Under the pieces are notes generated by a model. The model had not been told where the DNA came from, did not search any database, and saw only the letters and a list, made by a program, of their open reading frames with translations. The position numbers and the translations under genes are program-made. 64,000 nucleotides of DNA from Escherichia coli (lineage in GTDB: Bacteria; Pseudomonadota; Gammaproteobacteria; Enterobacterales; Enterobacteriaceae), in the NCBI RefSeq assembly GCF_002854065.1, contig NZ_CP024147.1, one strand, 5' to 3'. This document shows positions 3,588-44,856 of the stretch, piece by piece. Within the stretch, counting starts at the first letter, position 1, and the number at the start of each line of letters is the position of its first letter.

Positions 3588-5129
<1,542 letters not shown>

Positions 5130-39496: not shown

Positions 39497-40897
39497 ATGG
39501 GGCAATCATCGCAACCACATGAGTTAGGCGGCGGGCTGAAGTCACGCCATGTCACCATGTTGTCTATTGCCGGTGTTATCGGCGCAAGTCTGTTTGTCGG
39601 TTCCAGCGTCGCCATCGCCGAAGCGGGCCCGGCGGTATTACTGGCCTATCTGTTCGCCGGGCTACTGGTGGTTATGATTATGCGGATGTTGGCGGAAATG
39701 GCGGTTGCCACGCCCGATACCGGTTCGTTTTCCACCTATGCCGATAAAGCTATTGGTCGTTGGGCGGGTTATACCATCGGCTGGTTGTACTGGTGGTTTT
39801 GGGTACTGGTTATCCCGCTGGAAGCCAACATCGCCGCCATGATCCTGCACTCGTGGGTTCCAGGCATTCCCATCTGGTTATTTTCCCTCGTCATTACCCT
39901 CGCCTTAACTGGCAGTAATTTATTAAGCGTTAAAAACTACGGCGAATTTGAGTTCTGGCTGGCGCTGTGCAAAGTCATCGCTATCCTGGCCTTTATTTTC
40001 CTTGGTGCAGTCGCAATTAGCGGTTTTTACCCGTATGCCGACGTGAGCGGTATTTCAAGATTGTGGGATAGCGGCGGCTTTATGCCCAACGGCTTCGGCG
40101 CGGTATTAAGCGCGATGTTGATCACCATGTTCTCGTTTATGGGCGCAGAAATTGTCACCATTGCCGCCGCGGAATCCGACACGCCGGAAAAACATATTGT
40201 CCGCGCCACCAACTCGGTTATCTGGCGTATTTCTATCTTCTATTTATGCTCTATTTTTGTCGTCGTGGCGTTAATACCGTGGAATATGCCGGGGCTGAAA
40301 GCCGTTGGTTCTTATCGCTCGGTTCTGGAATTGCTCAATATTCCCCATGCGAAATTAATCATGGACTGCGTGATATTACTTTCCGTAACCAGTTGCCTGA
40401 ACTCGGCGCTGTATACCGCTTCCAGGATGCTCTACTCCTTAAGCCGTCGCGGTGATGCGCCCGCGGTAATGGGTAAAATCAACCGCAGTAAAACCCCGTA
40501 CGTGGCGGTGTTACTCTCCACCGGCGCGGCATTTTTAACGGTGGTGGTGAACTATTACGCACCTGCGAAAGTGTTTAAATTCCTGATAGACAGCTCCGGC
40601 GCTATCGCCCTGCTGGTTTATCTGGTAATTGCCGTTTCACAGTTGCGGATGCGTAAAATCTTGCTCGCGGAAGGAAGCGAAATCCGCCTGCGGATGTGGC
40701 TTTATCCCTGGCTCACCTGGCTGGTGATTGGCTTTATTACCTTTGTGTTGGTGGTCATGCTATTCCGCCCGGCGCAACAGTTAGAAGTGATTTCCACCGG
40801 CTTATTAGCAATAGGGATAATCTGTACCGTGCCGATTATGGCGCGCTGGAAAAAACTGGTATTGTGGCAAAAAACACCCGTTCATAATACGCGCTGA
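39497..40897 (+). CDS. gabP: GABA permease (APC family)
   Basis: Start moved to MGQSSQPHELGGGLKSRHVTMLSIAGVIGASLFVGSS (466 aa). Confidence 0.9.
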   Translation: MGQSSQPHELGGGLKSRHVTMLSIAGVIGASLFVGSSVAIAEAGPAVLLAYLFAGLLVVMIMRMLAEMAVATPDTGSFSTYADKAIGRWAGYTIGWLYWWFWVLVIPLEANIAAMILHSWVPGIPIWLFSLVITLALTGSNLLSVKNYGEFEFWLALCKVIAILAFIFLGAVAISGFYPYADVSGISRLWDSGGFMPNGFGAVLSAMLITMFSFMGAEIVTIAAAESDTPEKHIVRATNSVIWRISIFYLCSIFVVVALIPWNMPGLKAVGSYRSVLELLNIPHAKLIMDCVILLSVTSCLNSALYTASRMLYSLSRRGDAPAVMGKINRSKTPYVAVLLSTGAAFLTVVVNYYAPAKVFKFLIDSSGAIALLVYLVIAVSQLRMRKILLAEGSEIRLRMWLYPWLTWLVIGFITFVLVVMLFRPAQQLEVISTGLLAIGIICTVPIMARWKKLVLWQKTPVHNTR

Positions 40898-40917
40898 TAA
40901 TGATCAGGAGTCACACC

Positions 40918-41580
40918 ATGACCATTACGTCTCTGGATGGCTATCGCTGGCTGAAGAACGATATTATTCGCGGTAATTTTCAACCGGATGAAAAATTACG
41001 AATGAGTTTGCTGACATCGCGTTATGCACTTGGCGTTGGGCCGTTACGGGAAGCTCTTTCGCAACTGGTGGCGGAACGGCTGGTCACGGTGGTGAATCAA
41101 AAAGGGTATCGGGTGGCGTCTATGTCAGAGCAGGAGCTGCTCGATATTTTCGATGCCCGCGCCAATATGGAAGCGATGTTAGTGAGTCTGGCGATTGCCC
41201 GCGGTGGCGATGAGTGGGAGGCAGACGTTCTCGCAAAAGCGCATCTGTTGAGTAAGCTTGAGGCCCGTGACGCCAGCGAGAAAATGCTTGATGAGTGGGA
41301 TCTGCGTCATCAGGCGTTTCATACGGCAATTGTGGCGGGCTGTGGTTCTCACTATTTGCTGCAAATGCGTGAACGGTTGTTTGATCTGGCGGCGCGCTAT
41401 CGATTTATCTGGCTGCGACAAACAGTGCTTTCGGTGGAAATGCTGGAGGATAAACACGATCAGCACCAGACCCTGACTGCGGCGGTACTGGCGCGAGATA
41501 CCGCGCGCGCCAGTGAGTTAATGCGCCAGCATTTACTGACGCCAATTCCCATTATCCAGCAGGCGATGGCTGGCAATTAA
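40918..41580 (+). CDS. csiR: GntR/FadR-family transcriptional repressor CsiR
   Basis: Start moved to MTITSLDGYRWLKNDIIRGNF (220 aa); wHTH N-terminus. Confidence 0.85.
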   Translation: MTITSLDGYRWLKNDIIRGNFQPDEKLRMSLLTSRYALGVGPLREALSQLVAERLVTVVNQKGYRVASMSEQELLDIFDARANMEAMLVSLAIARGGDEWEADVLAKAHLLSKLEARDASEKMLDEWDLRHQAFHTAIVAGCGSHYLLQMRERLFDLAARYRFIWLRQTVLSVEMLEDKHDQHQTLTAAVLARDTARASELMRQHLLTPIPIIQQAMAGN

Positions 41581-42030
41581 CTACTCTTCAGGAATACGCA
41601 ACACTTGCCCCGGGTAAATTTTATCCGGGCTTTTTAGCATCGGTTTATTCGCTTCGAAGATTTTATTGTACAGATTGGCGTTACCGTAGACCTGTTTGGA
41701 AATGGCACTCAGAGTGTCGCCAGACTTAACGGTATAAAACTGGCTGGCAGTGGCTGGTGTCGCCGTTTTCACCTGATCATCAACACTGGCAATGCCGGAA
41801 ATATTCCCCACCGCAACAAGGATTTTCTCTTTCGCCTCCTGACTCAGGCCGTCACCAGTGACCGTCGCTTTGCCATCGGCAATTTGAATGTTCACTTTAT
41901 CGGCATCCGGTATACCGGTTTTGTTCAGATGCTCCTGCACCTTCTTCGCCTGATCGTCTTTATCGTGCTGACCTGTAACCGCGTCCCAGAGTTTTTCTCC
42001 GGCATCTTTCACAAAATTGAACAGACCCAT
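41581..42030 (-). CDS. ygaU: K+-binding protein Kbp/YgaU (BON + LysM domains)
   Basis: Start moved to [20 protein letters not shown] (149 aa); C-terminal LysM ([34 protein letters not shown]). Confidence 0.85.
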
Positions 42031-42113
42031 AGCTACCTCATTCGTTAACGGAAACACTCAGAAAGTGTAGCAGAGGAACGCGGCGCGTTAACGCCGCGGG
42101 GATGAGCACAGGT

Positions 42114-42272
42114 TTAATCGCGGGTTTGCACCCAGAACGCGTGAATCAAACCGGGGATATACCCAAGCAGTGTCAGCAGAATATTAATAATGAACGCCCA
42201 ACCGAACCCTTTACCGAGCAGCACGCTGAGCGGCGGCAGAATGATGGTGATGACGATTCTCCAGAAACCCAT
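42114..42272 (-). CDS. yqaE: Small membrane protein YqaE (Pmp3/UPF0057 family), 52 aa
   Basis: Reverse complement encodes MGFWRIVITIILPPLSVLLGKGFGWAFIINILLTLLGYIPGLIHAFWVQTRD-stop; below the ORF-track length cutoff. Confidence 0.8.
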   Translation of the reverse strand: MGFWRIVITIILPPLSVLLGKGFGWAFIINILLTLLGYIPGLIHAFWVQTRD

Positions 42273-42454
42273 ATGTACTCCCTATAAGAAAATTACTCAT
42301 TGTTTAAAAAGAGATTTTATCTCTTAAGCGTAGTAATTTTAGCGGAGCCTGCCAGTTTCAGCTTACGCTTTTACTCTCATTTACGCTGCTGAGGCTGGTA
42401 TATGTTGCATTTTTAGTTTAGAGTTTACTTAATTTAGAAAATACTTAAATAAAT

Positions 42455-42754
42455 ATGACTGAACTCGCGCAATTACAGGCCAGTGCCGAACAGGCAGCGG
42501 CCTTATTGAAAGCAATGAGCCACCCTAAACGGTTGCTGATTCTGTGCATGCTTAGCGGTTCCCCCGGCACCAGCGCGGGAGAGCTGACGCGCATTACCGG
42601 ACTGAGCGCCTCTGCGACATCACAGCATCTCGCTCGTATGCGGGACGAAGGACTTATCAACAGCCAACGGGATGCCCAACGCATTCTATATTCCATTAAA
42701 AATGAGGCGGTAAATGCCATTATCGCCACCCTGAAAAATGTCTATTGTCCGTAA
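42455..42754 (+). CDS. ygaV: ArsR/SmtB-family transcriptional regulator
   Basis: 99-aa ORF with HTH; forms a pair with ygaP. Confidence 0.9.
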   Translation: MTELAQLQASAEQAAALLKAMSHPKRLLILCMLSGSPGTSAGELTRITGLSASATSQHLARMRDEGLINSQRDAQRILYSIKNEAVNAIIATLKNVYCP

Positions 42755-42763
42755 GGAGTCACT

Positions 42764-43282
42764 ATGGCTTTGACAACCATTTCGCCGCATGATGCACAAG
42801 AATTAATCGCACGCGGCGCAAAGTTAATCGATATTCGTGACGCTGATGAATATCTTCGTGAACATATTCCTGAAGCAGATCTGGCTCCATTATCCGTGCT
42901 GGAACAGTCAGGTCTCCCGGCTAAATTACATCGCGAGCAAATTATATTCCACTGCCAGGCAGGTAAACGCACCAGTAATAACGCCGATAAATTAGCAGCG
43001 ATTGCCGCCCCCGCAGAAATCTTTTTACTCGAAGATGGGATTGATGGCTGGAAAAAAGCAGGATTGCCAGTAGCGGTAAATAAATCTCAACCCTTGCCGT
43101 TAATGCGCCAGGTGCAGATCGCTGCGGGTGGTTTAATATTAATCGGCGTTATACTGGGTTATACCGTAAATAGCGGTTTCTTCTTATTAAGCGGCTTTGT
43201 TGGTGCCGGGTTACTGTTTGCAGGAATTAGCGGTTTTTGTGGGATGGCAAGGTTGTTAGATAAGATGCCGTGGAACCAATGA
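42764..43282 (+). CDS. ygaP: Membrane-anchored rhodanese (thiosulfate sulfurtransferase)
   Basis: 172-aa ORF, rhodanese active-site Cys (FHCQAGKR) and C-terminal TM segments. Confidence 0.9.
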
Positions 43283-43334
43283 GCTTGAGAAGCGACGCCG
43301 GACGCGCCATAGCAGTGACATCCGGCCTCAGTAA

Positions 43335-43739
43335 TTAGATCAGGAAATCGTCGAGAGATTTACCTTCTGCCAGCGCCTGAGCGATTGGCTTCGGTGTACG
43401 GCCCTGACCGGTCCAGGTTTTAGTTTCACCGTTAACATCGGTGAATTTATATTTCGCCGGACGCGGCTGGCGTTTTTTACCAGCGCGTGGTGCAGCAGCA
43501 GAGCTATTACCCAATAACTCTTCCGGGTTAATTCCGTCAGCCTTCATCAGCTCCAGCCAGGTGCTAATTTTTTCCTGACGCTCAGCCAGTTCACGCTGCT
43601 GCTGTTCTTCTTCTTCACGTCTTTCTTTAGTGACAACCCTGAATTTTTCGAGCATTTCTTCAAGAACGTCAATGGAGAATTCGCGAGCCATCGCACGGAG
43701 GGTGCGAATGTTATTTAAACTTTGTAACATTACGGACAT
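43335..43739 (-). CDS. stpA: H-NS paralogue StpA (nucleoid protein / RNA chaperone)
   Basis: 134-aa [39 protein letters not shown]... Confidence 0.95.
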
Positions 43740-44406
43740 AATAAAGAAAACCTTTTAACGCCAAAACAAAAAAGTATTTCGTCGCGTAGTGTAAGCGATC
43801 ACTTATTATATTTCCACAAAATTTAATCTATTTACAGTCCTGCGCGAGATTATTTCAGCTGTTATTTTCTGAAACTCTCAGAATAATTTCAAGATTATAT
43901 ATTAGCCATTTTGATGAGTAATTTAGGTTATTGGTGAACAGAGTGGCGCTCTCTGCTCGCTAATTCCGCAAGCCTGACAAAACCGAAGTGAATAAAAATG
44001 CAATATAAAAGAATAAAAGAAAACACCCCTCACTGGTGCTTTCTGCTGTTAATGTACATTTTCTGGCATAAAAAATGCTGTAAATGACCCGGTCACGACA
44101 TACACCGAATTCTCTACGCTTATAGCGTTACCTCACCCCCAAACTTTCATTAGTGAAATTAAAGACAAGGCCATATCTAATTGATTTAATTGAAAATAAA
44201 TCATATCGGCATGTAAAAATCCACAATGTACAAAAAACGAGCCGTTACGGAATATTTTATCTACAAAAACTGACTAAATAAAAATTTTTCACTAATTGAT
44301 TAGTCATAGCCAGCGATATACGCTATGCGAAAATGCAGATGGCAATGAGATCCACTGCTTTCATCTCCATTAACATCCCATTACGCCTTTATTAAGGAGC
44401 ATTAGC

Positions 44407-44856
44407 ATGTTCTCACCGCAGTCACGCTTGCGTCATGCAGTTGCAGATACGTTCGCGATGGTTGTTTACTGTTCTGTCGTGAACATGTGTATTGAAGTTT
44501 TCCTCTCCGGAATGAGCTTCGAACAGTCTTTTTATTCCAGATTGGTAGCGATTCCGGTGAACATCTTAATTGCATGGCCATACGGTATGTACCGCGATCT
44601 GTTTATGCGCGCGGCACGCAAAGTTAGCCCGTCGGGCTGGATAAAAAATCTGGCGGATATCCTGGCTTATGTGACGTTCCAGTCACCGGTGTATGTGGCG
44701 ATCTTGTTAGTGGTGGGCGCAGACTGGCATCAGATTATGGCGGCGGTCAGTTCAAACATCGTTGTTTCGATGTTGATGGGGGCGGTTTATGGCTACTTCC
44801 TCGATTATTGCCGCCGACTGTTTAAAGTCAGCCGTTACCAGCAGGTAAAAGCCTGA
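44407..44856 (+). CDS. alaE: L-alanine exporter AlaE
   Basis: 149-aa membrane [34 protein letters not shown]... Confidence 0.9.

Follow-up and report, generated by a model that had tools for sequence, protein, structure and literature searches.

The small membrane protein gene yqaE of the Pmp3 family and its antisense open reading frame in an Escherichia coli genome

The stretch of E. coli DNA analysed here (hereafter, the window) has a length of 64 000 nucleotides. Its minus strand carries the gene yqaE, which codes for a small hydrophobic protein of the Pmp3/UPF0057 family, and the plus strand of the same segment contains an open reading frame (ORF) of 61 amino acids. The features of this locus, with their window coordinates and the evidence for each of them, are as follows.

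42370–42384, minus strand: CpxR box GTAAAtgagaGTAAA, in the same orientation as yqaE (pattern match, conservation, literature).
42336–42341, minus strand: probable -10 hexamer TAAAAT of the putative yqaE promoter (cross-genus conservation).
42306–42324, minus strand: conserved block AGAGAUAAAAUCUCUUUUU of the 5' untranslated region (UTR), a hairpin AGAGAU/AUCUCU followed by a U run (cross-genus comparison).
42260–42284, minus strand: predicted region of pairing with the small RNA CyaR, bracketing the start codon (RNAduplex).
42278–42282, minus strand: Shine–Dalgarno (SD) sequence GGGAG, 5 nt (tacat) before the ATG (read from the sequence).
42114–42272, minus strand: coding sequence of yqaE (translation, Pfam, RefSeq, sense dN/dS, AlphaFold2 model).
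42225–42227, minus strand: codon 16 of yqaE, AGC (Ser), the site of the substitution G16S in helix 1.
42102–42287, plus strand: ORF of 61 aa with an ATG start, the antisense shadow of yqaE (no family match, stops in orthologues, dN/dS, codon register).
42079–42098, minus strand: GC-rich hairpin CGCGGCGU-UAAC-GCGCCGCG, 16 nt after the yqaE stop codon (fold).

The reverse complement of 42114–42272 translates exactly into MGFWRIVITIILPPLSVLLGKGFGWAFIINILLTLLGYIPGLIHAFWVQTRD, with an ATG start and 52 codons followed by TAA, as proposed in the initial annotation. The affiliation with the Pmp3/UPF0057 family of small hydrophobic proteins, also proposed there, is borne out by the grand average of hydropathy (GRAVY +1.22), by numerous homologues and by the Pfam profile PF01679 (Pmp3, ‘proteolipid membrane potential modulator’), which YqaE matches strongly, with 68.3 bits (cut-off 22.9; E = 5.7e-19) over profile positions 2–47 of 49. 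A search of protein databases with the 52-aa translation, suggested at the same time as a check, finds relatives in abundance: there are 887 homologues at E ≤ 0.001, and PF01679 is present in all 120 matches listed. Proteins named YqaE or Pmp3 in the database sources come from Escherichia, Citrobacter, Klebsiella, Enterobacter, Lonsdalea and Pseudescherichia. In a scan of NCBIfam, no model matches either YqaE or the plus-strand peptide, a result of little weight beside the Pfam match.

The RefSeq coding sequence ‘yqaE: YqaE/Pmp3 family membrane protein’ of E. coli strain 100416 (locus positions 3615–3773) corresponds exactly to 42114–42272 of the window. The statement that yqaE had been missed by the list of ORFs is correct for the default list, from which the gene is indeed absent, but this is an effect of the length cut-off and not a gap in annotation. 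The gene is not listed because its 52 aa fall below the default threshold of 60 aa, at which the plus-strand ORF alone is shown; with a threshold of 30 aa, both ORFs appear.

Of 5426 complete E. coli genomes, 5417 contain the 1301-nt stretch around yqaE (window positions 41500–42800), and two, one of them strain 100416, have it with 100% identity. According to the RefSeq annotation, the gene order in this identical genome is gabT-gabP-csiR-kbp-yqaE-ygaV-ygaP-stpA-alaE. The yqaE gene of K-12 (b2666; WP_000508177.1, ‘YqaE/Pmp3 family membrane protein’) has the same length, start and synteny as that of the window. The nucleotide identity between the two is 98.7%, the differences being G16S (position 42227, T for C on the plus strand) and one synonymous change, and 51 of the 52 residues of the window protein are identical to WP_000508177.1, the version present in K-12, O157:H7 and ST131. 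The K-12-derived DH5alpha allele has the same sequence as the window over the 185 nt upstream (5' UTR, SD and CpxR box) and over the 90 nt downstream. The minus strand of 42114–42272 is thus an already known E. coli gene, annotated in essentially every genome of the species; nothing biologically new is claimed for it here.

An identity of at least 99% over the whole 1301-nt stretch is found in only 37 of the 5417 genomes, and over its central 411 nt (42050–42460) in 3140. This low number of nearly identical long stretches indicates that the haplotype of the flanking genes (kbp/csiR or ygaV/ygaP) is one of the less common ones.

Selection on the reading frame was analysed with four further E. 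coli alleles (K-12 DH5alpha, O157:H7, ST131 and SW071620) and six loci of other enterobacterial lineages. Differences between yqaE and the six non-E. coli loci fall mostly on third codon positions, with counts for positions 1/2/3 that range from 7/0/27 to 11/1/34. The sense dN/dS is 0.038–0.047 in those comparisons in which dS is unsaturated. No evidence against the gene call was found.

The position of the translation start is well defined. As a further check, it had been suggested to look for an SD sequence before the minus-strand ATG; GGGAG is present at the appropriate place and is kept in orthologues. Its GGAG core is found in all the orthologue loci with a called start that gives 52–54 aa, and the first four codons are kept too. 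An in-frame TAG (42284–42282, minus strand) lies four codons upstream of the ATG, which excludes a longer N-terminus of YqaE.

The hydropathy profile of YqaE has two hydrophobic maxima split by the motif GKG at residues 20–22. The AlphaFold2 model, built on an alignment of 38 sequences, contains two helices, 3–21 and 25–51, with a mean pLDDT of 87.8. YqaE is accordingly predicted to be a 52-residue Pmp3/UPF0057 proteolipid in which a short GKG turn connects two hydrophobic helices, and it has the size and shape typical of this family (about 50–60 aa, two hydrophobic helices and a short loop). The yeast protein Pmp3p and the plant proteins RCI2/Lti6 belong to the same family, PF01679, and share this size and this hydrophobic two-helix architecture.

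The sole relative of YqaE detected by sequence in the PDB is a chain of 58 aa, 7ueb_F/8gwa (‘PscF | Ric1 protein’), aligned over YqaE residues 3–47 with E of about 1e-3 and 22 bits. The match is weak; the two proteins have the motifs ILPP...G(Y/W)IPG in common. The entries 7ueb/8gwa represent a photosynthetic reaction-centre complex, which E. coli does not have. By the example of this relative, Pmp3-like proteins may be able to serve as subunits of large membrane complexes. A Foldseek comparison of the YqaE model with the PDB returned generic helical hairpins alone, none of them with E ≤ 0.001, and did not recover 7ueb_F/8gwa.

Upstream of the gene, the motif GTAAA-N5-GTAAA of the CpxR box is the only perfect match in the 64-kb window, where 0.11 would be expected. 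It is conserved in Citrobacter-, Salmonella- and Pseudescherichia-type loci. The hexamer TAAAAT lies about 30 nt downstream of the box; its positions 1, 2, 4 and 6 are invariant in four genera (TAAAAT, TAGAAT, TAAACT and TAAAAT) and its flanks vary. With a -10 element at 42341–42336, transcription would start near 42329 and the 5' UTR would be about 57 nt long. A strict scan for sigma-70 promoters over 41500–42800 called no promoter, which fits a yqaE promoter that depends on an activator.

A CpxR activator site is annotated at yqaEp and is confirmed by reporter footprints (bioRxiv 10.1101/2025.05.13.653802). Induction of yqaE along with Cpx genes has been described (PMC5105897), and the gene is induced with Cpx and membrane-stress genes on expression of TisB (bioRxiv 10.1101/2024.02.22.581605). 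The CpxR regulon in RegulonDB includes yqaE together with ygaU/kbp (PMC7657598). According to these published data, which the conserved upstream box supports, yqaE has a promoter of its own that is activated by the envelope-stress regulator CpxR.

A second level of control is predicted around the start codon. The region of pairing with CyaR spans the SD sequence (-12 to -6) and codons 2–4 (+4 to +12), and both blocks of pairing are also predicted in yqaE orthologues. For nucleotides 30–56 of K-12 CyaR and positions -40 to +25 of yqaE, RNAduplex gives -21.1 kcal/mol; shuffled sequences give -10.9 ± 3.0 kcal/mol, and two of 1000 are as strong as the observed duplex. When full-length CyaR was used, the duplex was not significant (28 of 500 shuffles as strong), the CyaR terminator being drawn into the pairing; this test was uninformative and was therefore replaced by the seed-restricted one.

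Published data identify yqaE as a target of CyaR (PMC5861431; PMC7213987) and show that a fragment with its ribosome-binding site (RBS) binds Hfq (PMC7145675). According to this literature, the Hfq-dependent CyaR represses yqaE post-transcriptionally; the predicted pairing with the SD and codons 2–4 would block ribosome loading. The CpxR box and the predicted CyaR site both agree with the published regulation of the gene.

The block AGAGAUAAAAUCUCUUUUU of the 5' UTR is nearly invariant between E. coli and the Citrobacter-, Salmonella- and Pseudescherichia-type loci, and the neighbouring UTR bases vary. The fold of the yqaE 5' UTR is no more stable than that of shuffled sequences (z = 0.02), so folding energy gives no reason to regard the conserved block as a structure. 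A possible role is that of an Hfq-binding element or an element of the 5' end. A scan of 40500–44500 against Rfam with a permissive E-value found no known RNA family over yqaE or the plus-strand ORF; it gave one chance-level match to a Listeria small RNA, outside the yqaE locus.

The hairpin downstream of yqaE folds with -24.2 kcal/mol (z = -1.96). It is terminator-like, and in E. coli it has no proper U run. Different GC hairpins are found at the same spot in Citrobacter- and Salmonella-type loci, that of Citrobacter being followed by TTTTCTTT. The hairpin was not called in a terminator scan of 41500–42800, in which the sole terminator-like site on the minus strand lies inside the coding sequence and is at chance level.

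Two observations concern the neighbouring gene kbp. The conserved motif CTACACT (42070–42064, minus strand), located 3' of the hairpin, resembles a -10 element of the sigma-S type that might serve kbp. The mechanical ORF of kbp (41581–42057, minus strand) starts at GTG 42057 and has 158 aa; the RefSeq start is ATG 42030, preceded by GAGG, which gives 149 aa and indicates that the ORF list over-extends the gene.

Conservation of the Pmp3 family reaches from bacteria to yeast and plants, and in the latter two it confers protection against salt (PMC7835403). The same source cites Kwok et al. 2020 for the finding that the NaCl sensitivity of an E. coli yqaE mutant extends to low as well as high concentrations and that its low-NaCl sensitivity is complemented by homologues from eukaryotes. 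The response of yqaE expression to KCl is different (PMC7835403). YqaE, Pmp3p and RCI2 are all stress-induced, with salt-related phenotypes on loss; in contrast to its eukaryotic relatives, YqaE is probably an inner-membrane protein and has CpxR and CyaR as its regulators. By homology with Pmp3p/RCI2, YqaE might modulate the membrane potential or the tolerance to monovalent cations (Na+/K+) from its place in the inner membrane, a role that fits the NaCl sensitivity reported for the mutant.

In E. coli OkiPb01684 (NZ_AP042519.1; locus L006, 2420–2578), IS1A replaces the 3' half of yqaE, and the same event also deletes kbp, csiR and part of gabT; the loss of the 3' half in this strain indicates that yqaE is dispensable. 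After expression of TisB, CFU survival of a yqaE deletion strain did not differ significantly from that of the wild type (bioRxiv 10.1101/2024.02.22.581605). As a matter of nomenclature, the yqaE–IS1 fusion ORF of OkiPb01684 is named ‘YqaE/Pmp3 family membrane protein’ by PGAP.

On the whole, we consider that yqaE is a real gene of the Pmp3 family, controlled by CpxR and CyaR, that its product may have a role in membrane potential or cation tolerance as suggested by homology, and that the plus-strand ORF is its antisense shadow. We estimate the probability of this reading at about 0.95.

The one slightly unusual feature of the window is the rare natural variant G16S. Residue 16 is Gly in all ten compared alleles and orthologues, among them K-12, O157, ST131 and all six other lineages. 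The distribution of the two versions was determined with a 55-mer centred on the SNP, so that megablast cannot seed on the other allele. The 55-mer with S16, as in the window, is present in two of 5426 complete E. coli genomes (strains 100416 and CUWW06), and the K-12 version with G16, which differs at the SNP base alone, in 5410 of them. The helix-1 signature reads ILPPLSV in the window; position 16 is occupied by Gly in 105 of 110 LPP-keeping homologues among the matches listed. The PROSITE UPF0057 pattern for helix 1, around I-L-P-P-L-G-V, presumably has [GA] at the position of residue 16.

One may speculate that G16S alters the packing or action of YqaE in the membrane and that AGAGAUAAAAUCUCUUUUU is an undescribed regulatory module, for example an Hfq-docking hairpin or one that stabilizes the 5' end; we regard this as rather unlikely. 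The rarity of S16 and the conservation of Gly16 could also be taken as signs that the yqaE gene of the window is functionally impaired or decaying. Such an interpretation has in our view quite a low probability, given that the frame, the start, the SD, the promoter box and all the other residues are intact and that the substitution lowers the PF01679 score by just 1.0 bit (from 69.3 to 68.3). Moreover, residue 16 is Ala in the PDB relative 7ueb_F/8gwa and Ser in one unrelated homologue (P0094), so small residues seem to be tolerated at this position. Because of the 1-bit difference in score and of these substitutions in relatives, G16S is likeliest a neutral or mild variant.

It could be asked whether YqaE is a toxin-like membrane peptide kept in check by a small RNA, in the manner of type I toxin–antitoxin systems, and not a protective stress protein. 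Such a peptide would be small, hydrophobic and located in the inner membrane, as YqaE is, with an RBS blocked by a small RNA, and the induction of yqaE with membrane-stress genes on expression of the toxin TisB points in the same direction. However, CyaR acts on many targets and its gene lies elsewhere, the Pmp3 family is protective against salt as far as yeast and plants, and yqaE is a core chromosomal gene under strong purifying selection; in addition, neither a cis-antisense RNA nor a toxin–antitoxin family of Rfam was found at the yqaE locus. The toxin hypothesis is thus very improbable.

The ORF on the opposite strand had been described as an antisense shadow with a charged, low-complexity translation and no recognized homologue. 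All three points stand. The two frames share the same codon register (42102 and 42114 are both divisible by 3), the GRAVY of the plus-strand peptide is -1.37, against +1.22 for YqaE, and the peptide matches no family in Pfam or NCBIfam. When the columns of the yqaE alignment are read in the plus-strand frame, dN/dS rises to 1.08–1.91, and four of the six non-E. coli loci have stop codons. Among the four further E. coli alleles, YqaE is constant (WP_000508177.1) and the antisense peptide varies. The initial annotation had named a minus-strand translation without homologues, together with a conserved plus-strand ORF, as the outcome that would speak against yqaE; both the abundance of YqaE homologues and the lack of conservation of the plus-strand frame go the other way.

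The properties of the shadow follow from those of the gene. The peptide is polar and charged because, with shared codon boundaries, the hydrophobic NTN codons of yqaE become polar or charged NAN codons on the other strand. The frame is open only because yqaE contains no TTA, CTA or TCA codon, and the probability that this happens by chance, calculated from the codon usage of the window, is 0.21. The window contains 38 ORFs of 200 aa or more, and every one of them is accompanied by an in-register antisense open stretch of at least 60 codons. Open antisense shadows are therefore routine in this DNA, and the plus-strand ORF is an ordinary one and not a gene.

That this ORF could be a genuine gene, in place of yqaE or overlapping it in antisense, has practically no chance of being correct: the frame does start with ATG, run for 61 codons and remain open in the examined E. 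coli alleles and in two of the six other lineages, but, within the reach of comparative evidence, it is refuted by the stops in four of six orthologues, the dN/dS of 1.1–1.9, the empty family scans and the equally long shadows of 38 of 38 long ORFs, and its ATG directly adjoins GCGGGG without a spacer and beside a stable hairpin, its composition is that predicted for the antisense of a hydrophobic gene, and RefSeq annotates no gene at its position in the 100%-identical genome.

The main value of the yqaE case, a small gene with an open shadow, is that of a quality check for the ORF scan. With a threshold of 60 aa, genuine small genes disappear from ORF lists, which may show their antisense shadows instead; hydrophobic genes yield shadows that are polar and charged. 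A shadow of the same kind is seen next to yqaE, where the default list contains a minus-strand ORF of 94 aa (42445–42729) that lies wholly over ygaV (42455–42754, plus strand).

Some observations were made on gene calls in the other enterobacterial loci. In the yqaE copy of Salmonella Agona 63.H.87 (L011, 1501–1716), about 20 codons are duplicated in tandem within the gene, with two occurrences of LPPLGVLLGKGFGWAFILNIL, and a TTG internal to the real gene is taken as the start; the duplication is either specific to this strain or an artefact of assembly. The Enterobacter-type YqaE, at L012 (1501–1740) and in numerous database records (for example P0082, 79 aa, 424 contigs), is called 27 residues too long (MAVTRKLAML...MGFWR). 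Their start is probably over-extended, since the conserved start MGFWR lies inside the called ORF.

An ORF of 59 aa (MFKPGDLVQPRMGGPKLKVVEV...), with no precomputed Pfam match, occurs at four of the loci (L007, 209–388; L011, 191–370; L012, 622–801; L010, 1082–1261). In the Citrobacter-, Salmonella- and Enterobacter-type loci it separates stpA from ygaP, and in the Pseudescherichia-type locus its neighbour is alaE. It is absent from the window because the gap between ygaP, which ends at 43282, and stpA, at 43335, is only 52 nt long.
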